IMG/VR virus record: IMGVR_UViG_3300036770_005357
Length of the DNA stretch: 64,000 bases
Strand: one strand, 5' to 3'
Origin: a virus
Taxonomy: Duplodnaviria; Caudoviricetes
Below the pieces are notes generated by a model, which worked only from the letters and a program-made list of their open reading frames with translations, was not told the DNA's origin and searched no databases. Position 1 is the first letter of the stretch. The number at the start of each line of letters is the position of its first letter. Below are positions 2,870 through 21,995 of this stretch, piece by piece. The position numbers and the translations under genes were made by a program.

Positions 2870-2872
2870 TTT

Positions 2873-3838: not shown

Positions 3839-4569
3839 AGATACAAGTACTTAAAAACGAAGACTATCAAGAAGTTTCAAACTTACCATCAAAAGGTACG
3901 GAACGTGCCACAGGATATGATATAGTTGCTACAAGTGAACCAGAAATCGTTGGTGAAAAGAATGAAAATGGATCTTATAAAAGAATTGATTACATTCAAT
4001 ATAAAACTAATCTTAAAGTTGCTGTACAGAAAGAAGAAAAGTCATTGACAGGTTTTAGTCTCGAACTTACCGACTATGATATTTTAGCATTTCCTCGTAG
4101 CAGTGTTAGTAAGTACAATCTTCAATTGGCCAATAGTATTGGATTGATTGATGCCGATTACAGAGGAGAATTACTACTTCGTTTTAATTATCTATGGCAA
4201 CCGGAAGATTATAATTTATATACACATGAAGCCGGAGATGCAGTCAAAGGTGAATTATACACTTATATAGGCGGAAAAGTTAATTCAAGTAAAATCTATA
4301 AAAAAGGAGATAAGATCTGTCAACTTAAAGTAACAAGAGTAGAGAATGTTAACTTCGAACTTGTAAATGAATTAGACTCCACAAATAGAGGTGAAGGTGG
4401 ATTTGGAAGCACCGATAACAAAAAATCAGAAAACGCTAGTGTGGCTGCTAAACAAATGTCTACAATGGAACACTTGTACAATAATATGACAAACAATGTG
4501 TCCACGCCAACAAAAAAATACAGTCAAACAATTAAGGAAAGAGATCAACAATTTTTTAATCAAAAATAA
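3835..4569 (+). CDS. dut: Trimeric dUTPase with C-terminal extension
   Basis: All five motifs: ATGYDI, PRSSVS, GLIDADYRGEL, GDKICQL, RGEGGFGST. Confidence 0.95.
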   Translation: MKIQVLKNEDYQEVSNLPSKGTERATGYDIVATSEPEIVGEKNENGSYKRIDYIQYKTNLKVAVQKEEKSLTGFSLELTDYDILAFPRSSVSKYNLQLANSIGLIDADYRGELLLRFNYLWQPEDYNLYTHEAGDAVKGELYTYIGGKVNSSKIYKKGDKICQLKVTRVENVNFELVNELDSTNRGEGGFGSTDNKKSENASVAAKQMSTMEHLYNNMTNNVSTPTKKYSQTIKERDQQFFNQK

Positions 4570-4571
4570 AT

Positions 4572-5906: not shown

Positions 5907-6559
5907 TTAAAATGTTTTTATCTTATTTAATAACATCTCATAATGAAGAGGTTTGTTTGAGTAAACTTCTACAGAAATTGCTTTCATTTAAAAAAGAAAA
6001 CCATGAAATAGTTTTATTAGATGATTATTCGGATAATCCGGAAACTATTTCTATAATAAACAGTTGTAAATCAAATATTAATTTTTATCAAAAAAAATTA
6101 GACAAAGATTATGGAGCACATAAAAACTATGGTATAAGTCTTTGCAAAGGTAAGTGGATATTTCAAATAGATGCAGATGAATGTCCGACAGACTTGCTTT
6201 TAGAAAATATAGACGACATTTTAAAAGCAAACGATTCAAATGAAGCGATTTGGTTACCGAGGTTAAATTATTTTTACGGAGTAACTCAACAAGACATATT
6301 AACATGGGGATGGCAATATAACGACGGTATGATTAACTTTCCAGACTATCAATCTAGATTATATAAAAATTTACCTCATATTAAATATGAACGCAGATTA
6401 CATGAGAAAGTTGAAGGATATAAAAGTTATGTATTTATTCCTGCGCAAAAAGATATTGCATTGATACATGAAAAAACTATAGAAAAACAACGACAAACAA
6501 ATATAAAATACAATCAGTTGTTTACGGAAGATGAAAATAGGGGATATAGTGTAAAATAA
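5903..6559 (+). CDS. GT2-family glycosyltransferase
   Basis: SYLITSHNEE, VLLDDYS, KNYGI..CKGKWIFQIDADE, FPDYQ.RL, LHEKV. Alternative ATG at 5912. Confidence 0.85.
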   Translation: MIKMFLSYLITSHNEEVCLSKLLQKLLSFKKENHEIVLLDDYSDNPETISIINSCKSNINFYQKKLDKDYGAHKNYGISLCKGKWIFQIDADECPTDLLLENIDDILKANDSNEAIWLPRLNYFYGVTQQDILTWGWQYNDGMINFPDYQSRLYKNLPHIKYERRLHEKVEGYKSYVFIPAQKDIALIHEKTIEKQRQTNIKYNQLFTEDENRGYSVK

Positions 6560-6563
6560 ATTT

Positions 6564-6989
6564 ATGAAATATATTACAAATATAGATACTTTATCAGCAT
6601 TATTTGATCGATTAATAACGGAAAATATTAAATTATATTTTTTTGAAAAAGATAATTTAACAGAAAAAAGTAATCATCAAAAATTAATAATTGAAGAAAT
6701 AAAAAACAAAATCCGTACTCTATTGAGAGATACTTATGAAAATAAACAATATGATTATTTTTCCGAAAAAAGAACTTTTAATGAAAATACAATTGTAGAA
6801 TCGTTGGAAGAGTTGATAATTAATGACATTAATATCGGAGAATCTGATAGAGAGCGTTTAAAACAAGTACAAAGCGATACACCCTCCATAGATAAGTTCA
6901 TAGTAAATGAAAAGAGACTTAGAAAATCGAATGAAGGTAGATCACGAAATAAAAATGAAATAGATCAACAATATAAAGATTTACTATGA
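6564..6989 (+). CDS. Helical DUF6165-like hypothetical protein
   Basis: L.DRL...NIK and N..R...KN.ID pattern shared with 11212..11565. Confidence 0.4.
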   Translation: MKYITNIDTLSALFDRLITENIKLYFFEKDNLTEKSNHQKLIIEEIKNKIRTLLRDTYENKQYDYFSEKRTFNENTIVESLEELIINDINIGESDRERLKQVQSDTPSIDKFIVNEKRLRKSNEGRSRNKNEIDQQYKDLL

Positions 6990-7972
6990 ATGTATTAATA
7001 ACAGGTGTTGCGGGTTTACTCGGATCTAATTTAGCTGATTATTTAATCAATAAAAATATTAATGTAATCGGTATAGACGATTTAAGTGGCGGATATATTG
7101 AAAATGTTAATGATAAGGTAAATTTTCACAAACTAAATTTAATAAACGATGTCACTCGTTTAAACGAATTATTTAATACATTCAAGATCGATTTTGTTTA
7201 TCACATGGCAGCATATGCCGCTGAAGGATTAAGTCCTTTTATACGAAATTATAATTATAATAATAATTTAATTGCTACAACAAATATTGTAAACTGTTGT
7301 GTGAATCACAATGTAAAACGACTCATATTCACATCTACTATGGCAGTTTATGGTGAAAACACTTTGCCGTTTGATGAAAAATACTTACCAAATCCCATTG
7401 ATCCATATGGTATTGCAAAATATGCTTGTGAACTGGATATAAAAGTTGCTGGAGAACAACATGGATTAGACTGGTGTATAATCAGACCACATAATGTTTA
7501 TGGTAAAAAACAAAATATCTGGGACAAATATAGAAATGTTTTAGGTATTTGGATGAATTTACATTTAAATAATAAACCATTAACAATCTATGGGGATGGA
7601 AAACAAACCCGAGCGTTTTCTTATATCGACGACAGCGTTGAACCTTTATGGAATGCTGCAATTTTCCCAGAGGCTTCTAAACAAATAATTAATTTAGGAG
7701 GAATTTATGAAACAAGTATCAATGAAGCATGTGATATTTTAATTAAAGTTATGGGAGGTGGAACTAAGGTGCATCTCGAAAAAAGACATGAAGTAAAACA
7801 TGCATATTCTACTTATCAAAAATCCATAGATATTTTGAAATTTAATCATCAAACTAATTTAGAAAATGGGTTAACCGATATGTGGACTTGGGCAAAAAAT
7901 CAACCACGAAAAAATCAATTTATATGGCAAAAGTACGAAATTGAAAAAGGAATTTATAATTACTGGAAATAA
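6986..7972 (+). CDS. NAD-dependent NDP-sugar epimerase/dehydratase (extended SDR)
   Basis: ITGVAGLLG, HMAAY, FTSTMAVYG, YGIAK (YxxxK), RPHNVYG, IYGDGKQTRAFSYIDD. Confidence 0.93.
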   Translation: MNVLITGVAGLLGSNLADYLINKNINVIGIDDLSGGYIENVNDKVNFHKLNLINDVTRLNELFNTFKIDFVYHMAAYAAEGLSPFIRNYNYNNNLIATTNIVNCCVNHNVKRLIFTSTMAVYGENTLPFDEKYLPNPIDPYGIAKYACELDIKVAGEQHGLDWCIIRPHNVYGKKQNIWDKYRNVLGIWMNLHLNNKPLTIYGDGKQTRAFSYIDDSVEPLWNAAIFPEASKQIINLGGIYETSINEACDILIKVMGGGTKVHLEKRHEVKHAYSTYQKSIDILKFNHQTNLENGLTDMWTWAKNQPRKNQFIWQKYEIEKGIYNYWK

Positions 7973-7982
7973 ATTTTTAGTT

Positions 7983-8612
7983 ATGAAAAAAATAAAATTT
8001 GACATTCTTACAGAATCCGAACTAATCGAATACGGCGTGTTTTCATCGGTAGATGAAACCTATGACTTTATAAAATCCAATCCTGAAAACCAACGTGGAA
8101 AAAATTCCATACAATGGATATACTTGTATATGGATGAGTTATATCAACTTGCTAAAGAATGTAATCATATTACCGAGATGGGTGTGAATGAAGTAAATAG
8201 TTCATGGGCATTCTTAAAAGCGAGGCCCAAAAAATTAGTATGTATTGATATTACATTTTCTTATGCTTATAAAAGAGTTAATTTTGAAGATCACATTTGG
8301 TTAGAATCATTAAAAGCTTTATCTAAAAAAGAAAATGTAGATTTAACATTAATAGAAGATGATACCACTAAAATAGAAATTGAAGAAACAGATTTATTAT
8401 TTATCGATACGAAACACACTTACCAACATCTTAAAAAAGAATTAAATTTACACGCTAATAAAGTTAAAAAATATATAGCATTTCACGATACAGTTTTGTT
8501 TCCGGAGTTAAATAACGCCATCATTGAATTTTTAGAAACGAATAGAAATTGGACAATATATAAAAATATAAAAACCAATCCCGGTCTTCTAATCATAAAA
8601 AATAATACATGA
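7983..8612 (+). CDS. Class I SAM methyltransferase (Methyltransf_24-like)
   Basis: TEMGV, VCIDI, DLLFIDTKHTY, YIAFHDT. ATG at 7983 preferred over the overlapping TTG at 7941. Confidence 0.75.
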   Translation: MKKIKFDILTESELIEYGVFSSVDETYDFIKSNPENQRGKNSIQWIYLYMDELYQLAKECNHITEMGVNEVNSSWAFLKARPKKLVCIDITFSYAYKRVNFEDHIWLESLKALSKKENVDLTLIEDDTTKIEIEETDLLFIDTKHTYQHLKKELNLHANKVKKYIAFHDTVLFPELNNAIIEFLETNRNWTIYKNIKTNPGLLIIKNNT

Positions 8613-9271
8613 ACAACATAATCAACGAAATTTTAAATAAAAAATTGACTCTAATTGATAGAGAAAGATTTGATTGTATTATTGATTTAAAACAGCAGGT
8701 TGAATCTCATGATGGCGATATAGTAGAATGTGGAGTTTATAAAGGAGGTATGGCTATATTTTTAGCTCATCTATTTCCTTTAAAAAAAATATGGGTGGTA
8801 GATTCATTTAGAGGATGTCAACCTTTAAAAAACGCTTTATTTAAATATGAAAAAGAAGAAAGATGGAAAGATGGAGAATTTTCAGCTTCCATAGAAGAAG
8901 TAAAAAATAACTTCAAAAAATTTAACATTTTAGATAAGAATCGAATAATTTATTTAGAGGGTTGGGTAAAAGATACATTACCTACATGTGATATAAATAA
9001 AATATTACTGCTTAGAGTAGATGTTGATAGTTATAGTGCAACCCGTGAAGTATTAAGATATTTATATGACAAAGTTGTTTTAAATGGCGTAGTAGTGTTC
9101 GATGATACATGTTGTTATGAAGCTATGGATGCTATCAAAGATTTTTTCATAATCGAAAAACAACAGCCAAATATAAATTTTTATACAGCAAAACACGAAA
9201 AAATAGATTTATTGAACATCGACTCAAAAAATGTTCCGTGTGGTTGTTACATGATTAAAAAATATGAGTAA
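8609..9271 (+). CDS. TylF/MycF/NovP-family sugar O-methyltransferase
   Basis: GDIVECGVYKGG, VDSFRG, EGWVKDTL, LLRVDVDSYSAT, GVVVFDD. Confidence 0.9.
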   Translation: MNNIINEILNKKLTLIDRERFDCIIDLKQQVESHDGDIVECGVYKGGMAIFLAHLFPLKKIWVVDSFRGCQPLKNALFKYEKEERWKDGEFSASIEEVKNNFKKFNILDKNRIIYLEGWVKDTLPTCDINKILLLRVDVDSYSATREVLRYLYDKVVLNGVVVFDDTCCYEAMDAIKDFFIIEKQQPNINFYTAKHEKIDLLNIDSKNVPCGCYMIKKYE

Positions 9272-10208
9272 AAAAATTGTAATAGTTCCAGTATTTTGTG
9301 AAACTCACTTAATTAAACTTCAAATAGATAATATATTTAATACGATTGATCCAGATATATTAATTTACAACGAAGGAATGTTTCCTCATGGTCCCGAAAG
9401 TTGTACTAATATGGCCGGATTTAAAGAAAAATATACTCTAAATAGTGAAGGAAAACGAGGGTTTGACTATCCGGAATTACAAGAAATAATATTTGAAGCT
9501 CAAAAAAAATATAGTAATAAGAAAATTATATTAAATGAGATGGAATACGATCCAAATGAAAAATCTGCTACCAAACATTATACAAAAGCGTGTAGTAATT
9601 TTAAAGAATTAAATATTGATGTTAATGTTGGTGATTTTATATTTCCATTTGAAGGAGATGTATTTCATCTAGAGAGTGATAAAGATTCGATTGAATCGTA
9701 CATGTCCCAATTAAATCCAGACACCGGTTTTAGAAGTATATGGGTAGATTTCGTACAAAATCAATATTACGCGGAACTTAAAAGTCTCAAACCATTCTTT
9801 AAAAATCAAGAGGGTAGTACCAGAAAAATTTGCATAAAATATGGCACTCAAAAATTTTACGAATCTGTTATAGGAAATTTTGAATCTAGAAATTATGAAG
9901 CGTTGTATTCTACAGAACTAGTAACATACCACTATCCGTGGTTTAGATTTGGAAAATATTTAGACTTAAGATACGATCAACTTAATAGACCCGATTATTA
10001 TTGGAAATACTTTTCTCAGGCTTTAAATTACATAGATGAATTAAAATACGCACGTGTATGTGCTAAGCCTGATAAACAAGGTACATACAGATATTTAAGT
10101 GCAGTAAAAATAAATCACCCAGAAGCTATAAAATCACATCCAAACTATATATCCGATATTGATATTGAAACTATTATTAACAATAACCACATCATCGATT
10201 ATAAATGA
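9264..10208 (+). CDS. Putative GT-A fold glycosyltransferase
   Basis: IVIVPVFCE start, FIFPFEGDVFH (DxD-like), HY motif; lies within the glycan locus. Confidence 0.45.
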   Translation: MSKKIVIVPVFCETHLIKLQIDNIFNTIDPDILIYNEGMFPHGPESCTNMAGFKEKYTLNSEGKRGFDYPELQEIIFEAQKKYSNKKIILNEMEYDPNEKSATKHYTKACSNFKELNIDVNVGDFIFPFEGDVFHLESDKDSIESYMSQLNPDTGFRSIWVDFVQNQYYAELKSLKPFFKNQEGSTRKICIKYGTQKFYESVIGNFESRNYEALYSTELVTYHYPWFRFGKYLDLRYDQLNRPDYYWKYFSQALNYIDELKYARVCAKPDKQGTYRYLSAVKINHPEAIKSHPNYISDIDIETIINNNHIIDYK

Positions 10209-11215
10209 AATTACAAAATAAATATGCAATAGGCACACATGTTATGTTCTATGAAATAGAAATGTATCCGGATTTTATAAACGGATTAATAAATCTATTA
10301 GAAGCTGTAGAGAACAAAGAAAATGTCTACTTAGATTTTTGTTTTAATACATCTGAATATTTTGAAAAGATTGATAAAAACAAAATAAGTTTAGATAACT
10401 TGTTCATTAAGTTTAATAGTGGTATAGAAAAATTAAAAGCATTGGGTTATAATAACATAAAAACTGATATTAAAAACATCAACGATGAAATTTACAATAT
10501 AGCAGATTATAGAAGAGACTTTAACAACAACTATTGCAAAAAAGTTGATTTTTTAATGTGGGGAGAAACTGACAGTTTCTTTCCAAAAGAATCATTTAAA
10601 GTACTCGAATCTTTAAAAAATTATACAGATAAAAATAATTTTCATCGTTATATCTTATCGTGGTCGGAACGGAAAATGTGGGATGAATCTTGGAAAGTTA
10701 CTGAACATGTTGACTATGAAAATATAATTTTTGTAGATACACCGGATCAAGTTGATAATGAAAATTATGCTAAATCTCCGTTGTCCATCGAAAAAATGAA
10801 TTTAATAAATTCAAAAACTGTAGATATAGATATCAGAGTAACAAATGAACCTAAAATTGATGGCAGTTGTTTAGTAATCAGTTCAGATTTGATTAAATGT
10901 GGAGTCAACATTCCTCACAGTCTTTTGTGTAGTGGTGATGATAGTAGTTTAGGCGTAATTGCAAAACAACTTCTGGGAGATAAATTCATACAAATCGTCG
11001 TTAAAAATATATTAAAAGTACATGCTAGAAGACATCCCAAAAAAAGAATGTATATTTTAAATGAAAACAATCCCCGTGGTTTTTGTGGTAAAGAAAAGGG
11101 TGATTGGTGGAAAATTTTACAAGATTACTCTAAATCCAATTTAAACATTTTATTAAATAATCAAAATAAATTCTATACATTTGACGATGTATTTGATAAA
11201 ATAAAAAACATATGA
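10205..11215 (+). CDS. Putative GT-A fold glycosyltransferase
   Basis: R..FN.....DFLMWGETDSFFP resembles the GT2 N...DxD region; GDD acidic motif; HARRH. Confidence 0.45.
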   Translation: MKLQNKYAIGTHVMFYEIEMYPDFINGLINLLEAVENKENVYLDFCFNTSEYFEKIDKNKISLDNLFIKFNSGIEKLKALGYNNIKTDIKNINDEIYNIADYRRDFNNNYCKKVDFLMWGETDSFFPKESFKVLESLKNYTDKNNFHRYILSWSERKMWDESWKVTEHVDYENIIFVDTPDQVDNENYAKSPLSIEKMNLINSKTVDIDIRVTNEPKIDGSCLVISSDLIKCGVNIPHSLLCSGDDSSLGVIAKQLLGDKFIQIVVKNILKVHARRHPKKRMYILNENNPRGFCGKEKGDWWKILQDYSKSNLNILLNNQNKFYTFDDVFDKIKNI

Positions 11216-11565
11216 AAATGCCAATATCAGAAATAGCAGATAGATATAGTATAACTCTTTTAAAAAGTGAACGAATTGAAGGAGTAAATCTAACAGATGA
11301 ATTAAATGCCTATTTACAAGAATTAAATAAGTACGAAGGTATACAAAGTTATTTAGAAAGACTGTATCAGATAAACGGAGAAATTTGGGATTTGGAATCC
11401 GACATTAGAAAAGGTAAGGAGAATATACTCGGACTTGAAGAAGTTGGTAGACGAGCAATTATGATTCGAGGTAAGAATAAGATTCGAGTTGGAATTAAAA
11501 ATGAAATGGTAGAGAAATACGAAGAAGGATTCAAAGATATAAAAATGAATCATGCTAGTGTATGA
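11212..11565 (+). CDS. DUF6165-like hypothetical protein
   Basis: SEIADRYSITLLK, L..INGEIWDLESDIR, N..R..IKN pattern. Confidence 0.55.
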   Translation: MKMPISEIADRYSITLLKSERIEGVNLTDELNAYLQELNKYEGIQSYLERLYQINGEIWDLESDIRKGKENILGLEEVGRRAIMIRGKNKIRVGIKNEMVEKYEEGFKDIKMNHASV

Positions 11566-12503
11566 ATGTATGTTTTGTAAGCCAAAACGGTCATATAGGA
11601 AAACTACCACGAAATTTTGAAAATTGTAGAGTAGAGTTTGCTTGGCAAATTGCATTAAACTCGGATCATCTATCTTTTGATTATATTTGTAAAAACAAAG
11701 TACAATCGTACGACTTAGTTATAATAATTCTACCGAAGAAACTTGAATTGATTAATATCAATCAAATATTAGATATTTGTAAATCTATTGGTAAAAAAGT
11801 AACAGTAATGCAAGAAGGTCCGTGTTGGTATTACCAAGATTACAAATACGAAGATCAAGTTAATTATATAAACTTTTTGAATGAGATGGACTTTTTATTA
11901 GTCCATAATAAAAGTGATGTAGCTTATTTTAAAGGTATATTTAAGAAACCTACATTTAATCTACAATCTTTAATGATTGAAGATACAGTTAAAAATATAA
12001 TTAATAAAAATAGTGGATATCCAATCATCGGTGGTAACTTTTGTAGCTGGTACGGTGGAGTAGATAGTTATTTTGTTGCCCGTAATTTTAATAAAGATAT
12101 ATACATACCTAGTATGGGTAGGAAAATAACCAATGAGGAAAACTTCCCAAACTTAAAACATTTACCTTATATGCAATGGACGCAATGGATCCATACACTA
12201 TCTCAATTCAACATAGGTATTCATTTGATGAGAACACATGCGGCTGGTACATTTGCCCTTAATTGTGCTTATTTAGGTATACCGTGTATCGGTTATAAAG
12301 GATTGGATACTCAACAAATATTACATCCATTATTAACGGTTGATGTAGGTAATATAGAAAAAGCAAACGAATTAGCTATACAATTAAGAGATGATGTAGA
12401 TTTTTATAATAATTGTTCTTTTCATTCTAAAGAATTATATCAAATATATTATACAGAAGAAAAGTGGTTACAAAATTGGAATAAAATTTATGAACAAATT
12501 TAA
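11562..12503 (+). CDS. Putative GT-B fold glycosyltransferase
   Basis: DLVII, VMQEGP, AGTFALNCAYLGIPCIG and C-terminal helix typical of GT-B. Confidence 0.6.
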   Translation: MNVCFVSQNGHIGKLPRNFENCRVEFAWQIALNSDHLSFDYICKNKVQSYDLVIIILPKKLELININQILDICKSIGKKVTVMQEGPCWYYQDYKYEDQVNYINFLNEMDFLLVHNKSDVAYFKGIFKKPTFNLQSLMIEDTVKNIINKNSGYPIIGGNFCSWYGGVDSYFVARNFNKDIYIPSMGRKITNEENFPNLKHLPYMQWTQWIHTLSQFNIGIHLMRTHAAGTFALNCAYLGIPCIGYKGLDTQQILHPLLTVDVGNIEKANELAIQLRDDVDFYNNCSFHSKELYQIYYTEEKWLQNWNKIYEQI

Positions 12504-13293
12504 AATTGGCATTGTTGGTTACGGATATGTTGGAAAAGCGTTTCATAATTTTTTTAAAAATCATTACGAATGTTTAATTTATGATCCAAACTTAAATACA
12601 AGCGTAACCAAAGACGAAATCAATAAATGTAATTTAGCAGTTGTATGCGTTCCTACTCCCGAAAAACAAGATGGTAGTTGTGATACGAGTATTGTGGAAG
12701 AAACAATTAGTTGGTTAAAAACGGAATTAATTCTTTTAAAAAGTACAGTTGAAATTGGCACAACCGATAAACTAATCAACACTTTTAATAAAGAAATTGT
12801 ATTTAGTCCCGAATTTGCAGGTGAGTCAAAATATTGGACACCGGATGGATTTACAACTGATGTTAAACAAACACCATTCTTTATATTTGGTGGTAAAAAA
12901 GAACTATGTTACAAATTAATTGAAATTTACACACCTATAACCGGTCCAAGCAAAACATACCGGGTAACAGATACAATCAGCGCGGAGATTACAAAATATG
13001 TAACAAATACACATCTAGCTATGAAAGTTGCATATTGCAATGAAATATACGATTTGTGTGAAAAACTCGGAATAAATTATTATGAAATGAGAGATTTATG
13101 GTTATTAGATCCCCGTACTACTAAATCCCATACAGCTGTATTTGCAAATGACCGTGGATTCGGAGGAAAATGTTTTCCAAAAGACACAAAAGCTTTAGTC
13201 AAATTGGGAGATAAAGTTGATATAAATCTTTCAATTTTAAAAAGTGTGTTAAAAAGTAATGAAGAAATGATCAAAAAAAATAATGTTATTTGA
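12490..13293 (+). CDS. UDP-glucose/GDP-mannose 6-dehydrogenase family, lacking the C-terminal domain
   Basis: GIVGYGYVG, VCVPTP, KSTV, FSPEF, catalytic K in EITKY, GFGGKCFPKD. Only 267 aa. Confidence 0.85.
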   Translation: MNKFKIGIVGYGYVGKAFHNFFKNHYECLIYDPNLNTSVTKDEINKCNLAVVCVPTPEKQDGSCDTSIVEETISWLKTELILLKSTVEIGTTDKLINTFNKEIVFSPEFAGESKYWTPDGFTTDVKQTPFFIFGGKKELCYKLIEIYTPITGPSKTYRVTDTISAEITKYVTNTHLAMKVAYCNEIYDLCEKLGINYYEMRDLWLLDPRTTKSHTAVFANDRGFGGKCFPKDTKALVKLGDKVDINLSILKSVLKSNEEMIKKNNVI

Positions 13294-13296
13294 ATT

Positions 13297-14100
13297 ATGA
13301 TTGAAGATAAATTTACCATATGTACTAGTTTTAATCATAGACTTTTTAAAGATCCACATCAAATTGCATATAAAAGTCTACCAAAAATTTTCAAAAATAG
13401 TAAATTTTATGTCTATCACGAAAATTCTTTTGATTCAAAAGTAGATAACATATCAATCGATTTTTCTGACAAATCGGACAATGTTATATTATACGATTTA
13501 TATGAAAAATTTCCGTGGTTAGAAAATTACTTAAAAACAAGTCATTTTTCAAAACTATCTAATCATTCTAATTATTGGATAAGAAATTCGGAATATTGGT
13601 TTAGAAAAGTAGTAAGTCTTGTAGATTTTATTATGACTGCAAATGAAACCGAATATGGTATTTGGTTTGATTGTGATTCTACTGTTATCAAACCATTTGA
13701 CCAAAGATTTTTAAACCAGTTATCAAATAATGATTGGTGTTGTATTTTCAGAGAAGAGTGGGGAGTAACTATTGAAACCGGATTTCAAGTTTTTAAACTA
13801 AATGACGACCGTGTTAAAAATTTTTGTTTAAAGTATTTAGAATATTATACAAGCGGCGATGTTTTTAAAAATGAAAAACAATATGCCGATAATTTTGTAT
13901 TGGAATCATGTTTTAAAAAATTTGACCACGATTTAAAATTAGGCCGGTTATTAACAAATAACTTTGATATTTACGAATATATCAAACACTTTAAACGCCC
14001 TTTAGGATTAGTCCGTGAACGGAAACGATTGATTGAAAAAAAGAACGAATTTTATTTAAAAAATAACAAACTTTTTAATAAATCAATTATCAATATTTAA
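13297..14100 (+). CDS. Putative GT-A glycosyltransferase
   Basis: RKV, IWFDCDS (DxD), ETGF, YAD, IKHFK: layout like GT8/GT34/nucleotide-diphospho-sugar transferases. Confidence 0.55.
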   Translation: MIEDKFTICTSFNHRLFKDPHQIAYKSLPKIFKNSKFYVYHENSFDSKVDNISIDFSDKSDNVILYDLYEKFPWLENYLKTSHFSKLSNHSNYWIRNSEYWFRKVVSLVDFIMTANETEYGIWFDCDSTVIKPFDQRFLNQLSNNDWCCIFREEWGVTIETGFQVFKLNDDRVKNFCLKYLEYYTSGDVFKNEKQYADNFVLESCFKKFDHDLKLGRLLTNNFDIYEYIKHFKRPLGLVRERKRLIEKKNEFYLKNNKLFNKSIINI

Positions 14101-14105
14101 TTTTT

Positions 14106-14861
14106 ATGAATGCTAATTGTATAGTAATGATCGCAATTGAAGATAATTTTTCAAAATACAACCATAAAGACTATTTTGAAATTTCAATTGAAGCTTGGAA
14201 GAAATATTGTACTAAAAACAGTATAGATTTTATCTTAATTGATAAAAAATTAAATTCAATTCCACATTCAAAATGGACAAAACATTTTTTATTTGATTAT
14301 ATTGAAGATAAATATGAAAAGATAGGAATGGTAGATTTCGATACTATACCTAAGTGGGATATGCCTAATCCGTTTGAATTGTATAATGATGAATTTTGTG
14401 GAGTTATTGATAATTGTAATTTAAATTGGTTAAACAATAGTCTAAATGCATATAAATCTACATTTCAAGAATTGGATGTCGATATAAAAATAAGCGAATA
14501 CATAAATAGCGGAGTCTTATTTTTTACAAAAAATCACAAATTTGTTTTTGAGGAAATGAAGCACTTTTATTTCAATAACAAAACGGTTTTAGATAATTGG
14601 AGTGTTTCAAACACCGGTCGAGATCAAACTATTCTAAACTTAGTTTTAAAAAAACTTAATATTAAAAAGAAATATTTTCCATATAGTTGGAACACAGTTT
14701 CTATGATAAAAAAAGGAATGTTTTTTTATAATGATAAGTTACAAGATTTTACTCCTTTTTTTATAAAATATGGAAATATATGGCACTTTACCGGATTTTC
14801 AATTGAGGAAAGAACTAATATTATTAGACAACTTTGGTCTCAAACAAAACACTTATATTAA
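14106..14861 (+). CDS. GT8/GT34-like glycosyltransferase
   Basis: KW.K, MVDFDT (DxD), INSGVLFF, DQTILN, WN, IWHFTG. Confidence 0.75.
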   Translation: MNANCIVMIAIEDNFSKYNHKDYFEISIEAWKKYCTKNSIDFILIDKKLNSIPHSKWTKHFLFDYIEDKYEKIGMVDFDTIPKWDMPNPFELYNDEFCGVIDNCNLNWLNNSLNAYKSTFQELDVDIKISEYINSGVLFFTKNHKFVFEEMKHFYFNNKTVLDNWSVSNTGRDQTILNLVLKKLNIKKKYFPYSWNTVSMIKKGMFFYNDKLQDFTPFFIKYGNIWHFTGFSIEERTNIIRQLWSQTKHLY

Positions 14862-15634
14862 TGAAAAACATAATATTTATCCCAGCAGTAATTTCTGACA
14901 AAGGAGAAAAAAAGTTGAGAAACACTCCTTTAATCAAAAAAATATTTGACTATAGTATACGAAGTTGGAAATACTTTGCTAATAAACATAATTGTACAGT
15001 AGTTGTTTTAGACGAACCAATATTAGATACTAATGTTACTAGTATGGCGTGGCAAAGATATTATGTTTTAGATTTATTGGAACAAAGTAATATTAAATAC
15101 AATCAAGTCTTAATAGTAGATGCGGATACTATTGTACATCCAAATTGTCCTAACTTTTTTGAATTAACTGAAAACAAATATACCGGCGTACACGATGGTG
15201 TAGTATATGAATGGGTAATGAGAAGTGTAGAGTGTTACAGCAAATTATTATTTAACAACTATAACTTAAATGTTTGGAATTATATTAATGGTGGATTTCA
15301 AATAATCAACGAATCACATAAAAATCATATAAATAAGTTCAAAGAATTTTATATAAATAACCGAGAGGAAATTTATCAAGTTGAATCCAATATAAAATTA
15401 GGTACAGATCAAACACCTATGAATTTCTTTCTACAAATAAATAATGTTGATACTAAAATTCTACCGTATGAATTTAACATGACGGGATTACATCTATCTG
15501 AAGGTTTGAACGAAGATTTAATTTTTACAAATTTAGGATGGGTTTATCATTTTAATGGTATACCTGATGAAACTTACGGTTCAAAAGTAGAATATTATAT
15601 GAATAAAACTTTTAAAAAATTGTATGATAACTAA
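14861..15634 (+). CDS. GT8/GT34-like glycosyltransferase (paralogue of the preceding gene)
   Basis: AWQRY, IVDADT, INGGF, TDQTPMN, FN, VYHFNG. TAATG stop/start overlap at 14859-14863. Confidence 0.75.
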   Translation: MKNIIFIPAVISDKGEKKLRNTPLIKKIFDYSIRSWKYFANKHNCTVVVLDEPILDTNVTSMAWQRYYVLDLLEQSNIKYNQVLIVDADTIVHPNCPNFFELTENKYTGVHDGVVYEWVMRSVECYSKLLFNNYNLNVWNYINGGFQIINESHKNHINKFKEFYINNREEIYQVESNIKLGTDQTPMNFFLQINNVDTKILPYEFNMTGLHLSEGLNEDLIFTNLGWVYHFNGIPDETYGSKVEYYMNKTFKKLYDN

Positions 15635-16586
15635 AAAGAACATCAATGGAAATCCAGAATTTGGTTGTGAGTTAACTTTAACCCTACCATATGCATATCA
15701 TCTCCATCTAAAGAATGAATTGGGAACCGTTAGAACTGTTAAAGGCATGAAACCATTTTATTTTTTTACAGACCAAATTGAAGAATATTATAATGATCGA
15801 TCTGTAGATAATAAAGTGGCTTTAAAAGATGTACCGAATAATTGGATACACCACAATGCATTAGCAATAACCGGTAAAGATTATAGTGAACTAACAGACG
15901 AAGAAAAAAGAAATGTAAATGGTGTATTAGATTATAGAGAATGGACTCCACCTCCCATAAGGGAACATTATCTTAAAAATAATGAAATAAATATAAAAGA
16001 AAAATTCGTAGTAATATGCAATAGATTTAATCTTGAACACGGACACTTTCCATATGGATACTTTGATATTCCACTTTTACAAGATATCTTTGAATACTTT
16101 AATAAAATTAATTACAAAGTAATTTATAAACGACCTGAAAATAATGAATTTCCAGTTGATTGTAATGAAACTAGTGATATCATAAATAAATACGGCATTA
16201 AAGCAGAAGATGCAAATGGAAATGTTGTTGATGATAAACAAATAAGCCGAATGTATGATAATGTTATCGTATTTGATGATTTACATAAAGAATATTCACA
16301 TTTATCTTACAATGTTTTTCAATTACAATTATTTTCTAAATCTTCCGGTTTTATTTCGATGGGAGGTGGAAACACCCTATTGAGTTGTTATTTTAAACAA
16401 CCTGTAGTTTCTTATTTTACTACTACAAAAGAAATGAGAGATAATTACTTTGGTAAAAATTCCTATTATAGGAAACTTTCAAATTGTGATTTTTATCCAA
16501 TAAAAGATCCAGAAAAAAATATACAAGAAAGAGGATATAGAGATTACACGGAATTATTAGAAACAATAAAAACAGTTTTTAAATGA
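15624..16586 (+). CDS. Hypothetical protein, possible GT-B (GT9/fucosyltransferase-like) transferase
   Basis: EFGCEL...PYAY N-terminus, GFISMGGGN near the C-terminus; in glycan locus. Confidence 0.35.
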   Translation: MITKKNINGNPEFGCELTLTLPYAYHLHLKNELGTVRTVKGMKPFYFFTDQIEEYYNDRSVDNKVALKDVPNNWIHHNALAITGKDYSELTDEEKRNVNGVLDYREWTPPPIREHYLKNNEINIKEKFVVICNRFNLEHGHFPYGYFDIPLLQDIFEYFNKINYKVIYKRPENNEFPVDCNETSDIINKYGIKAEDANGNVVDDKQISRMYDNVIVFDDLHKEYSHLSYNVFQLQLFSKSSGFISMGGGNTLLSCYFKQPVVSYFTTTKEMRDNYFGKNSYYRKLSNCDFYPIKDPEKNIQERGYRDYTELLETIKTVFK

Positions 16587-17509
16587 AAAACAAGAAAATA
16601 TTTATCACAGGAGGAGCAGGCTTTTTAGGTAAAAATATCGTCAAAAGATATTATGACGATAATGAAATAACTGTATTTAGTCGTGATGAAGCAAAACACT
16701 ATTATTTAAAAAAGCAATTTCCTAAAATAAAATGTGTTGTTGGTGATATAAGAAATTATGATCTGCTTAAAAGAAGCAGTAAAAATCACGAAGTAGGAAT
16801 ATTTGCTGCAAGTTTAAAGCAAATTGAAGCTGTCGATCAAAATGTTGAAGAATCGGTAAAAATTATAATTAATGGTGCCATTAATAGTAGAAGAGTCTCT
16901 GAAGAAAATAATTTTGAATCTGCATGTTTCATTTCTTCTGATAAAAGTCGATCCGCTACAACGCTTTATGGATCTATGAAATTCGTCGCAGGTGAAAGTT
17001 TTATTGTAAATTCAGACGCAAATTTCCCAAAACTAAGCACGGCTATTTACGGAAATGTATTAAACTCGACAGGTAGTATAATTCCACTAATTTGGAACGC
17101 TTTACAAAACAAATATGCATTAAAATTGTATTCTACGGAAATGACTCGATTTATGATATCAGTCGATGAGGCTATTGATTTAATAGAAGCTTCATTAAAA
17201 GTTAATGGGTATAATGTAATACCCGAAGTAAAAAGTTTTCGTATACAAGATTTATTTGAAATATACGCCGAATTATTTGGTTTGAAATACGATGTAGATA
17301 AACCCCGAATTTCAGAAAAACTCCACGAAATCATGATATCGAGTGAAGAAATACCGCGTGTTAAAAAAGAAGATGCATATTTTTATATGCATTACAAAGA
17401 AACATATAATCGAGTATCGTTTCCAAATAATGAATTCTCTAGTAAAGATGTATGTATAAGTAAAGAAAAACTAAACAATATTTTGAAATCCTTTAATTAT
17501 TTTGAATAA
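16583..17509 (+). CDS. NDP-sugar 4,6-dehydratase (PseB/FlaA1/CapD, Polysacc_synt_2 family)
   Basis: ITGGAGFLG, FSRDEAKH, VGDIR, AASLKQI, ISSDKS, YGSMK, YGNVLNSTGSIIP, MTRF, EKLHE. Confidence 0.9.
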   Translation: MKNKKIFITGGAGFLGKNIVKRYYDDNEITVFSRDEAKHYYLKKQFPKIKCVVGDIRNYDLLKRSSKNHEVGIFAASLKQIEAVDQNVEESVKIIINGAINSRRVSEENNFESACFISSDKSRSATTLYGSMKFVAGESFIVNSDANFPKLSTAIYGNVLNSTGSIIPLIWNALQNKYALKLYSTEMTRFMISVDEAIDLIEASLKVNGYNVIPEVKSFRIQDLFEIYAELFGLKYDVDKPRISEKLHEIMISSEEIPRVKKEDAYFYMHYKETYNRVSFPNNEFSSKDVCISKEKLNNILKSFNYFE

Positions 17510-17510
17510 T

Positions 17511-18734
17511 ATGTATCCAGAGTATAAATTAAGAACCAGTTGTGCAATTTGTAAAAATTTAGAACTAAAAACAATTTTTGATTTCGATGAAATATCTTTA
17601 GCGGGAAATTTTCCAAAAAAAGATGAACTAAATCACTGTAAAAAATATCCTTTAAAATTAAAATATTGTACAAACTGTTCTTTGGTACAGACAGATAGTA
17701 TAATTAATTCGGATTTTTTATTCAAAGATTATCGTTACATGTCATCTATAGGTTTAAGTAAACATTTTTCTTCTGTAGCAATGTTGTACAAAGAAAAGTT
17801 CGGCTTAAATAATAACAGTAAAGTATTAGAAATAGGATCCAATGATGGAGTTTTATTAAAACCATTCATGGATTTAGGTATACCGTGTATGGGATTTGAT
17901 CCATCCATAAATATATCTAAAGTAGCACAAGAAAAGGGATGTAATGTAATTGTAGATTATTTTAGCAAAACGACGGCAACTAAATACCTAAAAGAAAATG
18001 ATTATGACATAATTTGTTCAAATAATTGTTTTGCACATATCGATGACATTCATTCTATACTGGAAGGAGTATCATATAGTTTAAAACCAGATGGACATTT
18101 CATAATTGAAGTACATTATTTAAAAAACTTAATCGAACAGTTACAATATGACTTCGTATATCATGAACATTTATATTATTACTCGTTATCAGCTTTAAAT
18201 TATTTATTTAATTTACACGGATTATCAATTGTAGATTTTGAAGAAATCTCTATTCATTCGGGTAGTATAAGAGTATACGCTTCAAAAAATAAAAAAACAA
18301 ATGAAAAGGTGGATAATCAATTAAATTTTGAAAAAAATATCGGAATGACAAATTTTGAGTATTTTGAAAATTACAGTCTCAAAGTTAAGAACCATATCAT
18401 TTCTTTACAAAATATAATAAAAAATTTAAAGAACGAAGGTTTTACTATAGCTGGGTACGGTGCATCTGGTCGAGGTAATGTGTTACTTAACATGTGTAAG
18501 TTTACTTCAAATGATATATCATTTATAATAGATGAATCACCCGAACGTTACGATCGTTATGTAGGTGGTACTGACATTCCCATATTCAATAAAAACTATT
18601 TAAACTTAAATAAACCGAATTATATTTTAATTTTGGCTTGGAACTATTCGGATATGATAATGGAAAAATTAAAATCCGAAAATTTCAAATATATAATTCC
18701 TTTTCCAACTGTAAAAATTCACTGTATTCCGTGA
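17511..18734 (+). CDS. NDP-hexose C-methyltransferase (TylCIII/EryBIII/NovU type)
   Basis: Zn site CAIC...CTNC, EIGSNDG, YHEHLYYYS, HSGSIR, GYGASGRG, ILAWNY. Confidence 0.9.
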   Translation: MYPEYKLRTSCAICKNLELKTIFDFDEISLAGNFPKKDELNHCKKYPLKLKYCTNCSLVQTDSIINSDFLFKDYRYMSSIGLSKHFSSVAMLYKEKFGLNNNSKVLEIGSNDGVLLKPFMDLGIPCMGFDPSINISKVAQEKGCNVIVDYFSKTTATKYLKENDYDIICSNNCFAHIDDIHSILEGVSYSLKPDGHFIIEVHYLKNLIEQLQYDFVYHEHLYYYSLSALNYLFNLHGLSIVDFEEISIHSGSIRVYASKNKKTNEKVDNQLNFEKNIGMTNFEYFENYSLKVKNHIISLQNIIKNLKNEGFTIAGYGASGRGNVLLNMCKFTSNDISFIIDESPERYDRYVGGTDIPIFNKNYLNLNKPNYILILAWNYSDMIMEKLKSENFKYIIPFPTVKIHCIP

Positions 18735-19528
18735 AGATTTTAATACTAGGACATAAAGGAATGTTAGGACATATGGTGATGAAATATGTATCTCACCTTC
18801 AGATAAATCATGAAATAATAGAACAACGATGGCCATCAAATGAATTCACGGAATCAATTAAAAATTCTAATTCAGACTTTTTAATAAATTGTATAGCATG
18901 TATTCCACAAAAATATTCTACATGGAATTTATATAAAGAAACAAATATCGATTTACCGATTTTTTTAATAAAAAATTTCAACGGTAAAATAATAAATCCC
19001 ACATCCGATTGTGAGTTTTCTGGAAATATAAAATTAGGCAAGTTTTACGAAAAAAACCATATGAAAGATGTTACAGATGATTATGGAATAAGTAAATCAC
19101 ATACAACAAATATTTTATTAAACTATAATAATGTAAAACAAATAAGATCTTCATTAATAGGACCGGAAATAAAAGGTAAAGTGTGTTTAATGGAATGGTT
19201 TTTTAGACAAAATAAAGATATACACGGTTATAATAACCATTATTGGAATGGTATAACTACCTTAGAATGGACAAAACAGTGCTTAAAATTAATAGAGAAC
19301 TGGGATAGATCGGATAACTTAATTCAGTTAGGTACAACTCCCATAACTAAGTATGATCTTTTATGTTTTTTAAATAAAATATTTGAATGTAAAAAAAACA
19401 TAATATCTATTAGTACGGAGTTTATTAATAGAAGTTTAAAAAGTGACTATTTAATAAAGAATATTGAAGATCAATTAATTGAGTTAAAACAGTTTTATTA
19501 TGAAAATAAGTTTCATTCAGCCGAGTAG
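18731..19528 (+). CDS. RmlD-like NDP-4-keto-sugar reductase
   Basis: ILILGHKGMLG, INCIA, TSDCEFSG, YGISK, IRSSLIG. GTG start overlaps the upstream TGA (GTGA). Confidence 0.85.
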   Translation: MKILILGHKGMLGHMVMKYVSHLQINHEIIEQRWPSNEFTESIKNSNSDFLINCIACIPQKYSTWNLYKETNIDLPIFLIKNFNGKIINPTSDCEFSGNIKLGKFYEKNHMKDVTDDYGISKSHTTNILLNYNNVKQIRSSLIGPEIKGKVCLMEWFFRQNKDIHGYNNHYWNGITTLEWTKQCLKLIENWDRSDNLIQLGTTPITKYDLLCFLNKIFECKKNIISISTEFINRSLKSDYLIKNIEDQLIELKQFYYENKFHSAE

Positions 19529-20702
19529 AAATAACCTAAAATATCTTAAATGGAGTTATGAAGCTATTCGTAAAAATCTAAGCCATAAAGAACACGAAAT
19601 ATGTGTAGCAGACGATTTTAGTAATGATGGTACAGAGGATTGGTGTAAAGAAACCGCAGCAAAAGATCCAAATTTTAAATATATTCGTAATAACGGTCCA
19701 ACTCGGTTGGGACATACTATTTTATATGATCGTTTAATCAATGAAGTTGCAACTAATGATGTGGTAATGATCTACCACGCAGATATGTACGCATGTCCTA
19801 ATTTTGATAAATATGTTGAAAAATATATTCAACCAGGCACAATTGTTAGTTTAACTCGTATAGAACCACCTCTACATCCACCAGGACCAGAAAAAATTTG
19901 TGTTGGATTTGGTCAAGAGCCAGAAGAGTTTAAGGAACAAGAATTCTTAAAATGGTTCAAAGATACCAGTCTATCCCGTAAAGATAAAACCACAGAGGGT
20001 ATTTTTGCGCCGTGGGCCCTTTATAAGAAGGATTTCCAATCTATAGGAGGTCATGATGAACTATATGCACCTCAAAGTAAAGAAGACAGTGATATATTTA
20101 ATCGTTTCTTACTTAATGGTTATAAGTTTATTCAGACATGGGAAGGTTGTGTATATCATATGACTTGTAGAGGCAGTAGATATAATCCAACTATCACCAC
20201 TGTAGGTAAAGAAAGTGACGAATGGTTAGCTCAAAACAATCGTAGTGCTAGAAACTTCATTCGTAAGTGGGGTCACTTTGTTAAACACAATGATACAATG
20301 AAACCTATCGTACCTAAACGATATGATATTGGATTCGTTGTTAAGAATTGTGATGCTTATAAATTAGCTTTGTTAGAACCGTGGTGTGATACAATCTATA
20401 CCGATGTACCATATGATCAATACATCAATATTGAACAAAAAAATACTAAGTTTGATTTAGATAAGAAACTCAAACGATATGAAGATCAAAAGATTAATGA
20501 TGTTATCATAGAATTTGATGCTAATAAATTAACCAACGAAAGTTTTGAATTTTTTAACTCGTTACAACTTATACTCGAAGATAGTGGTCAAATAGGTGAT
20601 TCTGAATTTGATATATTTAAATTAAAAATAAAAAATTTAAGTGATTATAGTAAAAACTTAATAAGTATTAACGATAATTGGTACAAAAATAAATTATTGT
20701 AA
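19500..20702 (+). CDS. GT2-family glycosyltransferase with C-terminal extension
   Basis: ISFIQPSRNN, VADDFSNDGT, MIYHADM, GGHDELY, EDSDIFNR, YH..CRG. Confidence 0.9.
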   Translation: MKISFIQPSRNNLKYLKWSYEAIRKNLSHKEHEICVADDFSNDGTEDWCKETAAKDPNFKYIRNNGPTRLGHTILYDRLINEVATNDVVMIYHADMYACPNFDKYVEKYIQPGTIVSLTRIEPPLHPPGPEKICVGFGQEPEEFKEQEFLKWFKDTSLSRKDKTTEGIFAPWALYKKDFQSIGGHDELYAPQSKEDSDIFNRFLLNGYKFIQTWEGCVYHMTCRGSRYNPTITTVGKESDEWLAQNNRSARNFIRKWGHFVKHNDTMKPIVPKRYDIGFVVKNCDAYKLALLEPWCDTIYTDVPYDQYINIEQKNTKFDLDKKLKRYEDQKINDVIIEFDANKLTNESFEFFNSLQLILEDSGQIGDSEFDIFKLKIKNLSDYSKNLISINDNWYKNKLL

Positions 20703-20715
20703 CTAAACAAATATC

Positions 20716-21306
20716 ATGAACATAGAAAAAATTCTATCGATATTACCAGATAAATTTGCTAGTAAACGAACCACCTCAAAAAAATTTAAAACGGATCTTT
20801 ACAACTTTTTTAACGAAGAAAAATATAAAGACTTTAAATGTGCTGAATTAGGCATTTTTAATGGCGATTCTACACTTTTATTATGTAATTTATTTAAACA
20901 TGTAATTGGAATAGAATATTCACAAAAACAAATTGATATAGCTACAAATTTTTTAAAAAAGAATAATTTAAATAATTTTGATTTTTTACTTCACGATTTA
21001 TATAATCGAAAATTTCCATATGTCGGTGAAATAGATGTTTTTATGATTGACGCTGTACATACGTATGAATGTGTTAAAATAGACACATTTAATTGTATAA
21101 ATAGTAAAAAAGAATCTTCGATTGAAAACAAAAAATTATACTTTATATACGACGATTATGGTGCATTTCCCCCAGTTAAACAAGCAGTCGATGAACTAAT
21201 TTCATCGAATGTTTTATCCGTAGTTAAAAAAATAGGATATATGCCTGGAGAAAATTTTGTAAACAAATTATTTGATTATGAAGGCATAATTTGTATAGAA
21301 ACATAA
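20716..21306 (+). CDS. Class I SAM methyltransferase (Methyltransf_24-like)
   Basis: AELGIFNGDST, IGIEY, DVFMIDAVHTY, IYDDYG. Confidence 0.8.
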   Translation: MNIEKILSILPDKFASKRTTSKKFKTDLYNFFNEEKYKDFKCAELGIFNGDSTLLLCNLFKHVIGIEYSQKQIDIATNFLKKNNLNNFDFLLHDLYNRKFPYVGEIDVFMIDAVHTYECVKIDTFNCINSKKESSIENKKLYFIYDDYGAFPPVKQAVDELISSNVLSVVKKIGYMPGENFVNKLFDYEGIICIET

Positions 21307-21321
21307 AACCAATTTAAGAAA

Positions 21322-21717
21322 ATGACTTTATTTCACATGATAAATTACTTTATAATAGATTTTTCGTTACTATGTTTTATTTCTTTTATATTAATAGTGT
21401 GGTTTGAAAGTGATATAGTACAAACCTTTGCTAAATTAACAAAGACTCGGAATTTACTTAAGATACCGGAGTTTGAAAAATATAAACTTGAAGAAGACAT
21501 AATGTCCAATTACGCTAACTTTTTATATGCAAAATATCCTGGCTATCTAACGAAATTGATTAGTTGTCCAATTTGTTTATGTTTTTGGACAAATTTAATT
21601 CTTGGTAATGTACTTTTATATTATTTAGGATTTCCCCAACTATATTTTTTAATTATTTTTTCTATAAACTATATTTTTAGTTTATTCTTTTATCTAATTA
21701 TTAGAAAATTATTATGA
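21322..21717 (+). CDS. Membrane protein, DUF1360-like
   Basis: Three hydrophobic segments and LISCPICLCFW motif. Confidence 0.5.
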   Translation: MTLFHMINYFIIDFSLLCFISFILIVWFESDIVQTFAKLTKTRNLLKIPEFEKYKLEEDIMSNYANFLYAKYPGYLTKLISCPICLCFWTNLILGNVLLYYLGFPQLYFLIIFSINYIFSLFFYLIIRKLL

Positions 21718-21995
21718 CTGTAGGTGGTTATCAGGACTTTATAAATAAATTTGGCGCTGACAATATACCATCAATAGATAATTTAAAAAATTGTTTATTG
21801 ATACTAGGAAAAATTTGCAATTGTCAAAAACAAAGAAAACATTTAAAATCGGAAGAATGTAATAAAGTTTATATTAACTTGATAAATTCTACAATTTCAA
21901 ACATGGTAGATTATTTAAAAACAAAAACTACCGATGATGAAATAATATTTTATTACAACGGTAGTCATGAAATTAAAAGAATTAAATTGCGTTAA
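21714..21995 (+). CDS. Hypothetical protein
   Basis: 93-aa ORF coupled to the previous gene (ATGA overlap); CNC...C residues. Confidence 0.6.
   Translation: MTVGGYQDFINKFGADNIPSIDNLKNCLLILGKICNCQKQRKHLKSEECNKVYINLINSTISNMVDYLKTKTTDDEIIFYYNGSHEIKRIKLR

Follow-up and report, generated by a model that had tools for sequence, protein, structure and literature searches.

Three coupled genes in a phage glycan operon as a candidate pathway to a 3-C-methylated 6-deoxy-N-acetylhexosamine

Autonomous viral glycosylation is known mainly from giant viruses and some mycobacteriophages, and C-methyl-branched sugars are rare outside actinomycete antibiotics. In Megavirus chilensis, UDP-L-RhaNAc is made by the enzyme pair Mg534/Mg535, of which Mg534 (PDB entry 4TQG) is a UDP-GlcNAc 4,6-dehydratase/5-epimerase and Mg535, a 3-epimerase/4-reductase of 270 aa, epimerizes C-3, reduces C-4 and keeps the epimerization cysteine of GDP-fucose synthase (PMC9614988). 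The same review of giant-virus glycans describes no C-methyl sugar (the term 'C-methyl' occurs 0 times), and 3-C-methyl monosaccharides were termed 'quite uncommon' in a review of glycan NMR (PMC9912281). Methylation of the TylCIII type is reported to proceed with inversion at C-3, and a route to the virenose of Coxiella burnetii has been proposed that consists of Gmd, the C-methyltransferase CBU_0691 and a GDP-fucose-synthase-type reductase (PMC3539893). In this study, three adjacent genes for a dehydratase (DH), a C-methyltransferase (MT) and a reductase (RED) were analyzed within a glycan operon of phage DNA from a subsurface metagenome (IMG/VR virus record IMGVR_UViG_3300036770_005357). 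The stretch of 64,000 nucleotides that was analyzed, referred to below as the window, is the terminal 64 kb of a linear 173-kb virus record with a CheckV completeness estimate of 73%.

The three genes are as follows.

16583..17509, plus strand: DH, a UDP-GlcNAc-type 4,6-dehydratase of 308 aa (Polysacc_synt_2, Mg534/PseB-like)
17511..18734, plus strand: MT, an NDP-hexose C-methyltransferase of 407 aa (TylCIII/EvaC/MtmC/TcaB9 type)
18731..19528, plus strand: RED, a short NDP-4-ketosugar reductase of the RmlD fold, 265 aa (Mg535-like family)

The reading frames and their junctions are exactly those of the initial annotation of this DNA, which had described a 1-nt gap followed by a GTGA overlap, and its three family assignments all hold, with the catalytic residues intact. 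The ATG of DH overlaps the TGA of the preceding gene (ATGA), the ATG of MT at 17511 lies 1 nt past the DH stop codon (TAA, 17507-17509) and the GTG start of RED at 18731 overlaps the TGA of MT (18732-18734); the three genes are translationally coupled. The GTG start is supported by an N-terminus, MKILxLGHxGMLG, that is conserved in 23 homologues, and by the JGI gene call, which also gives 265 aa.

The best-supported reading of these sequences is a UDP-6-deoxy-HexNAc (HexNAc, N-acetylhexosamine) pathway of the Mg534/Mg535 type with an added C-3 methylation, which would feed a phage-encoded glycan. In the proposed scheme, DH would convert host UDP-GlcNAc to UDP-2-acetamido-2,6-dideoxy-hexos-4-ulose, probably with inversion at C-5 as in Mg534 and PseB. 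MT would deprotonate a carbon beside the 4-keto group, most likely C-3, and place a methyl group from S-adenosylmethionine (SAM) there, and RED would reduce the 4-keto group with NAD(P)H to give UDP-3-C-methyl-6-deoxy-HexNAc, a branched amino sugar. Since methylation of the TylCIII type reportedly inverts C-3, the configuration there, otherwise set by the epimerase, would be set by MT. The soluble glycosyltransferases of the phage, with a family 2 glycosyltransferase (GT2) as the first candidate, would then use the sugar to build a glycan on an acceptor in the cytoplasm, for which virion proteins are the most likely candidates. The sequences show the gene structure, the families, the intact catalytic residues and a conserved, recurrent linkage of the genes, whereas which substrate is used, where the methyl group goes, with what stereochemistry and on which acceptor the sugar ends up are inferred; a cautious balance of probability favours the view that the three genes form this cytoplasmic pathway and that its product is used for a virion glycan.

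DH matches PF02719 (6e-39, 134.4 bits against a cut-off of 20.2), with residues 6-267 covering profile positions 1-289 of 293. It carries the Rossmann motif G11-A-G13-F-L-G16 (G-x-G-x-x-G, in a run that starts with GG at residue 10) and the catalytic residues S119-D120-K121 and Y129-x3-K133, which align with TDK...YGATK of FlaA1. Among solved structures in the Protein Data Bank (PDB), the top relative is Megavirus Mg534 (4TQG, 8.6e-41), followed by FlaA1/PseB of H. pylori (2GN4, 5.3e-32), FnlA and CapE (~1e-26) and, far weaker, PglF (1.6e-13). PglF is a retaining dehydratase, and because the C-5-inverting Mg534, PseB and FnlA/CapE score far above it, this ranking of solved relatives suggests that the substrate of DH is probably UDP-GlcNAc and that C-5 is inverted. 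Against the PseB equivalog (NCBIfam TIGR03589) DH reaches 156 bits for a cut-off of 407.75 and is therefore a member of the family rather than a PseB orthologue proper; the PseB/CapD-type dehydratase proposed in the initial annotation stands as a family assignment, with Mg534 closer than PseB. The N-acetamido sugar that had been guessed at there becomes the better-supported option, since the top solved relative of DH acts on UDP-GlcNAc. Furthermore, a search of the 173-kb contig for a sugar nucleotidyltransferase found none, as would be expected if the pathway draws on a pool present in every host, such as UDP-GlcNAc.

MT has the full three-domain architecture of its family, with all three domains above the Pfam cut-offs: the zinc domain Methyltransf_13 (PF08421, residues 11-71, 8.7e-12), the SAM-dependent methyltransferase domain Methyltransf_23 (PF13489, residues 99-241, 1.9e-20) and Methyltransf_14 (PF08484, residues 248-399, 1.8e-38). 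Its full-length matches in the PDB include MtmC (4RV9, 7.7e-75), TcaB9 (4e-52) and KijD1 (6.8e-49). The four zinc-binding cysteines, C11, C14, C53 and C56, align with CxxC...CxxC of MtmC and TcaB9, and the SAM motif is E107-IGSNDG. The conserved active site, on which the initial annotation had made the methyltransferase assignment depend, was checked by alignment and all five residues are present: Y74, H176, Y217, E219 and H220 align with Tyr76, His181, Tyr222, Glu224 and His225 of TcaB9, which have catalytic roles according to mutant studies of TcaB9 (entries 4E2W-4E33). The five residues are invariant across 16 diverse homologues, with identities down to 32%.

These relatives also bear on the position of the methyl group. 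NovU and CouU are C-5 methyltransferases of the same three-domain family, and C-5, like C-3, lies beside the 4-keto group and still carries a proton after the dehydratase step; a NovU-like methylation in the same pathway would give a 5-C-methyl (gem-dimethyl, noviose-like) 6-deoxy-HexNAc. However, the solved relatives that were found, MtmC, TcaB9 and KijD1, are all 3-C-methyltransferases, and the reductase family provides a further indication against C-5, described below. Methylation at C-5 is considered unlikely.

RED by itself gives only a sub-threshold Pfam match (Epimerase), and phmmer, run with the RED sequence on the PDB, gave no match. It has at least 592 relatives, many of which carry PF04321, and a family profile of 24 sequences matches RmlD structures at 1.2e-9 to 4e-5 (1VL0 best, 1.2e-9). 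The AlphaFold (AF2) model, with a pLDDT of 94.5, has RmlD structures as its top Foldseek matches (TM-score 0.75-0.82), and by the family profile and this predicted structure RED is a member of the RmlD-fold family. Its motifs are G7-x2-G10-x2-G13, S92-D93-C94 and Y118-x3-K122; in the 24 sequences the glycines, Y118 and K122 are invariant and position 92 is Ser or Thr throughout. C94 lies two positions after the catalytic S92, in the register of S-x-C in a GDP-fucose synthase, at a position where canonical RmlD has Tyr. The hhalign comparison of the RED family with the GDP-fucose synthase of Synechococcus phage DSL-LC02 gave a probability of 91.6% with low confidence in the register around the catalytic motif, and the register was judged instead by the spacing from the catalytic Ser and Tyr, with the Cys109 type of GDP-fucose synthase as the reference. 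By this register, C94 is the putative C-3-epimerase cysteine. His170 in NHYWNG was considered as a second acid/base candidate and was rejected, as it varies within the RED family without a clear pattern.

If MT methylates C-3 before RED acts, C-3 becomes quaternary and can no longer be epimerized, and the cysteine would therefore be dispensable. Of 85 non-redundant REDs, 22 are linked to MT (MT within 2.5 kb) and 63 are not; the cysteine has given way to G, A, S, N, F or a gap in 16 of the former, and in two of the latter, and the REDs of L007 and L009 are among those without it; the raw Fisher test, in which relatedness is ignored, gives p 1.2e-10. This loss of the cysteine in MT-linked reductases favours methylation at C-3 in the sequences compared, and it is explained by methylation at C-3 and not at C-5, but the association is not significant after correction for the tree (see below).

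The gene neighbourhoods of relatives provide further evidence for the coupling of the three genes. Neighbourhoods of RED homologues were surveyed together with 80 IMG/VR loci that matched the RED profile (surveyed homologue loci carry L-numbers). The usual order is DH directly before RED with no MT, as in related phages (L003, L016, L017), in a giant-virus metagenome-assembled genome (MAG; L043) and in a MAG of Paceibacterota, a member of the candidate phyla radiation (CPR; L005), and this arrangement agrees with the Mg534/Mg535 pair. MT lies between DH and RED in the window, as it does in the relatives nearest to it (L007, L009, L011). Two arrangements are otherwise syntenic and differ essentially by MT: in L016 and L017 a conserved 320-aa protein (up320) is followed by DH, RED and GT2, and in the window and L009 by DH, MT, RED and GT2. 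A tblastn search for an MT remnant in the MT-less relatives L015-L017 found none. In L015 (IMGVR_UViG_3300032116_014831), the DH of which is 82% identical to that of the window, a different gene of ~185 aa lies between DH and RED at 4386-4956, and its motifs LELGVRDG... and FIDADHS resemble those of class I SAM methyltransferases. That another small methyltransferase-like gene fills the slot in L015 suggests that the junction of DH and RED could be a tailoring position with exchangeable occupants.

A survey with the MT profile, run across phages as the initial annotation had proposed for the triad, found at least 101 IMG/VR stretches with a homologue, and the module recurs in many uncultured viral contigs. 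A DH-type gene lies within 5 kb in about half of 79 MT loci, most of the loci with such a gene also have RED, and the gene orders DH-MT-RED, MT-DH-RED and DH-RED-MT all occur. After removal of redundancy, at least 22 viral lineages have MT linked to the DH/RED pair (22 of 85 REDs). The coupling of the three genes that had been claimed from the window is strengthened, since MT is inserted into a DH-RED pair that is conserved elsewhere.

The placement of MT could nevertheless be incidental if MT serves another pool, either GDP-4-keto-6-deoxymannose made by a phage Gmd, towards a virenose- or evalose-like sugar, or the dTDP-4-keto-6-deoxyglucose of the host. A genuine Gmd (370 bits) is encoded at G000:C1:84916-85929 on the same contig, ~40 kb upstream of the three genes and ~24 kb before the start of the window, and the phage thus handles at least two nucleotide-sugar pools. 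A GDP-type arrangement is also found in a cultured phage. MT homologues are present in seven of 50,697 GenBank phage records, namely four huge uncultured phages, two faecal fragments and one cultured phage, the T4-like cyanophage Synechococcus phage DSL-LC02 (OR032571.1; MT identity 26.5%). At positions 5959-9153 of DSL-LC02 (L256), genes for a GDP-mannose 4,6-dehydratase, the MT homologue and a GDP-L-fucose synthase lie in a row, followed by six glycosyltransferases; the MT homologue bears no annotation beyond 'methyltransferase domain-containing protein', and the triad is a candidate for an unrecognized GDP-type analogue, a pathway for a C-methyl 6-deoxyhexose. Moreover, the characterized enzymes of the MT family use dTDP-sugars, and cellular homologues stand beside RmlB/RmlD-like genes. 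This was seen in the 80 cellular loci that matched the MT profile best, among them loci of Bradyrhizobium, Burkholderiales, Melainabacteria, CPR bacteria and DPANN archaea. Compared with the phage proteins, the neighbouring dehydratases score only ~100 bits and the neighbouring reductases 30-80 bits; because of these low scores they are taken as RmlB/RmlD-type, and a pairing of MT with an Mg534-type dehydratase was found in none of the 80. In contrast, many viral lineages independently have MT between or beside an Mg534-type DH and RED, in three orders, and in the window the genes are translationally coupled. In a FastTree phylogeny of 128 non-redundant MTs, the window falls in a clade of 31 rows with 100% support (30 viral and one Chitinophagaceae MAG) that carries the DH/RED linkage, and not in the RmlB-linked cellular clade; a second clade of four rows, all viral, is also linked to Mg534-type DH. 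An MT that serves another pool therefore seems improbable.

The module is apparently recurrent and virus-dominated, and it might be virus-restricted, a hypothesis framed on the sample of the 80 best cellular loci. The wider proposal, that a widespread, virus-dominated module makes UDP-3-C-methyl-6-deoxy-HexNAc and decorates virions with it, MT being a swappable cassette through which close relatives come to differ in their glycans, is plausible but is put forward tentatively.

The surroundings of the three genes bear on the fate of the product. The window is a large tailed (jumbo) phage contig. Besides the IMG/VR virus record, its genes uphold the phage label: it encodes a tape measure protein, a UvsX-like recombinase, DnaB, a class II ribonucleotide reductase and a clamp-loader subunit, and also UvdE. 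A near-identical copy of the stretch occurs in a run of a second, independent study (74% of sampled words), which makes an artefact of a single assembly unlikely; no RNA run was among the sequencing runs listed as carrying it. The enclosing operon and the two genes that flank the triad are as follows.

2324..21995, plus strand: glycan operon of ~20 kb with 25 tightly coupled genes
15624..16586, plus strand: up320, a conserved protein of 320 aa with no family match, adjoining DH
19500..20702, plus strand: GT2 glycosyltransferase of 400 aa (PF00535, 5.5e-12), sharing 29 nt with the end of RED

The junctions within the operon span -32 to +15 nt, and its G+C content is 0.26-0.29 from ~6 kb onward, compared with ~0.33-0.35 in most of the remaining window. 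Glycosyltransferases, short-chain dehydrogenase/reductase (SDR) enzymes and methyltransferases account for many of its genes: besides GT2 and a family 4 glycosyltransferase (GT4), it encodes an SDR epimerase, TylF-type and other methyltransferases and a nucleotide-sugar dehydrogenase-like protein. GT2 is the candidate transferase for the pathway product. The protein up320 has no match in Pfam, NCBIfam or PHROGs, the Atlas yields a weak lead to GT9, and the protein accompanies DH, RED and GT2 in L009, L016, L017, L046, L063, L072, L105, L109 and L120, a set that extends to distant viral contigs. The protein may be a glycosyltransferase of no assigned family that is tied to the pathway sugar.

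No transmembrane segments were predicted among the 25 operon proteins except in one 131-aa open reading frame (ORF) at 21322-21717, and family scans of the operon proteins detected no flippase, polymerase or polyprenyl-phosphate transferase. Because of this absence of export and membrane families and the near-absence of transmembrane proteins in the operon, a soluble acceptor is most likely, and virion proteins are favoured by analogy with giant viruses. The same operon could instead modify phage DNA, as glycosylated hydroxymethyl-pyrimidines, or the host envelope, which would change the acceptor only and leave the chemistry unaffected. Hypermodification of DNA with diverse glycans by phage glycosyltransferases is described in a preprint (bioRxiv 10.1101/2023.12.21.572611) and provides a precedent, and a dUTPase/dCTP-deaminase-like protein beside GT4 in the operon, and again in L010, could hint at nucleotide or DNA chemistry. 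However, a search of the 173-kb contig (an estimated 73% complete) for a thymidylate-synthase-like hydroxymethylase found none, which makes glycosylation of DNA less likely, and an envelope acceptor is opposed by the missing flippase, polymerase and polyprenyl-phosphate transferase families and by the single 131-aa ORF as the only predicted transmembrane protein. Either acceptor in place of virion proteins is judged to be very unlikely.

Some further features of the window were recorded. The 131-aa ORF at 21322-21717 (plus strand) has three strongly hydrophobic segments and no Pfam match and is the sole membrane-protein candidate of the operon. The dUTPase/dCTP-deaminase-like stretch is the C-terminal part of a 244-aa protein at 3835-4569 (plus strand), directly after GT4 (a 'GT4-conflict' match), and the pairing of GT4 with such a protein is the one that recurs in L010. 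The nucleotide-sugar dehydrogenase homologue at 12490-13293 (plus strand) has 267 aa and covers model positions 67-298 of 413, the usual N- and C-terminal parts being missing; no family was matched by the next ORF, at 13297-14100. On the minus strand, at 27307-28491, there is an isolated DruA-like gene of the Druantia type (PF14236, 1e-22), and no other Druantia components were matched among its scanned neighbours.

Several observations weigh against the proposed pathway to UDP-3-C-methyl-6-deoxy-HexNAc and its use for virions. The characterized relatives of MT all use dTDP-sugars, mostly 2,6-dideoxy or 3-amino sugars, and not UDP-HexNAc. The putative equivalence of the reductase cysteine to that of Mg535 is drawn from the motif register and a statement in a review. 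When the tree of the sequences is taken into account, the association between loss of the cysteine and MT is not significant: among eight independent contrasts, ~4.6 go in the same direction and 0.2 in the opposite direction, with a median p of 0.125. The RED of the window itself retains the cysteine, and from its sequence it may still epimerize and reduce the unmethylated intermediate. Orthologues of GT2 (824-945 bits) follow RED alike in relatives with and without MT, so that no dedicated transferase marks the methylated sugar. Finally, what points to the acceptor is solely the lack of membrane and export proteins on a contig with an estimated completeness of 73%.

Part of these observations would also be expected if the phage made mainly an unmethylated sugar resembling UDP-L-RhaNAc and MT modified part of the flux, giving a glycan that is heterogeneous in methylation, with MT as a tailoring or diversification cassette. 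The cysteine is kept both in the window and in the RED of its relative L011, GT2 is the same with and without MT, and the slot of L015 is occupied by another methyltransferase-like gene. On the other hand, the 1-nt and 4-nt junctions suggest stoichiometric co-expression, and the cysteine is gone in most MT-linked lineages, which points to a commitment to the methylated route there. Partial methylation of this kind is regarded as an unlikely explanation of the locus.

The enzyme families involved are all known; the interest of the locus lies in its predicted product and its viral setting. If the proposed pathway to UDP-3-C-methyl-6-deoxy-HexNAc is correct, its C-methylated N-acetyl-6-deoxyhexosamine would extend the range of natural sugars by a new one, UDP-HexNAc would be a new substrate class for this methyltransferase family and the synthesis of branched sugars would be added to known autonomous viral glycosylation. 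The presence or absence of MT in an otherwise syntenic block provides a natural comparison for the role of glycan tailoring in stability, adsorption and the evasion of glycan-recognizing defences or grazers. DH, MT and RED are small, soluble and open to direct assay, and the cultured DSL-LC02 offers an experimental system for the GDP-type triad. No report of a 3-C-methyl-6-deoxy-HexNAc from any organism was found in a partial literature collection, and the absence from the same collection of a relevant paper on a phage sugar C-methyltransferase is weak evidence of novelty. In PHROGs, MT has only weak generic matches and RED has no family. The initial annotation knew of no characterized phage example, and none was found here, the DSL-LC02 analogue being cultured but uncharacterized.

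Compared with known systems, MT shares its domains, zinc-binding Cys4 site and catalytic Tyr/His/Tyr/Glu/His with the dTDP-sugar 3-C-methyltransferases (TylCIII, EryBIII, EvaC, MtmC 4RV9, TcaB9 3NDI and KijD1 5T64) and is likewise placed between the 4,6-dehydratase and 4-ketoreductase steps. Those enzymes belong to actinomycete antibiotic clusters and act on dTDP-2,6-dideoxy or 3-amino sugars made via RmlA/RmlB, whereas the phage has a UDP-GlcNAc-type dehydratase, no nucleotidyltransferase found on the contig and a glycan operon. The bacterial RmlD-RmlB-MT clusters (Bradyrhizobium, Burkholderiales and others) also hold an MT homologue, with 33-38% identity, beside a dehydratase and a reductase, but these partners are of the RmlB/RmlD type by their scores against the phage proteins given above. 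The virenose route of Coxiella and the triad of DSL-LC02 resemble the present locus in their sequence of dehydratase, C-3 methylation and epimerase/reductase and in serving a glycan rather than an antibiotic; they differ in using GDP-mannose chemistry towards a neutral 6-deoxy sugar, and both are proposed routes. The dTDP antibiotic and virenose routes had been named in the initial annotation as known examples; the closest precedent is instead the Mg534/Mg535 pathway to UDP-L-RhaNAc with a C-methylation step added. In both cases the genes are virus-encoded and associated with virion glycan clusters, the pairs are similar in size (~310 and ~265 aa here, 323 and 270 aa in Megavirus) and the reductase has the RmlD fold, with a putatively equivalent cysteine two positions after the catalytic Ser/Thr. 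Unlike the Megavirus pair, the phage, the host of which is a bacterium and not an amoeba, carries a C-methyltransferase between the two genes.

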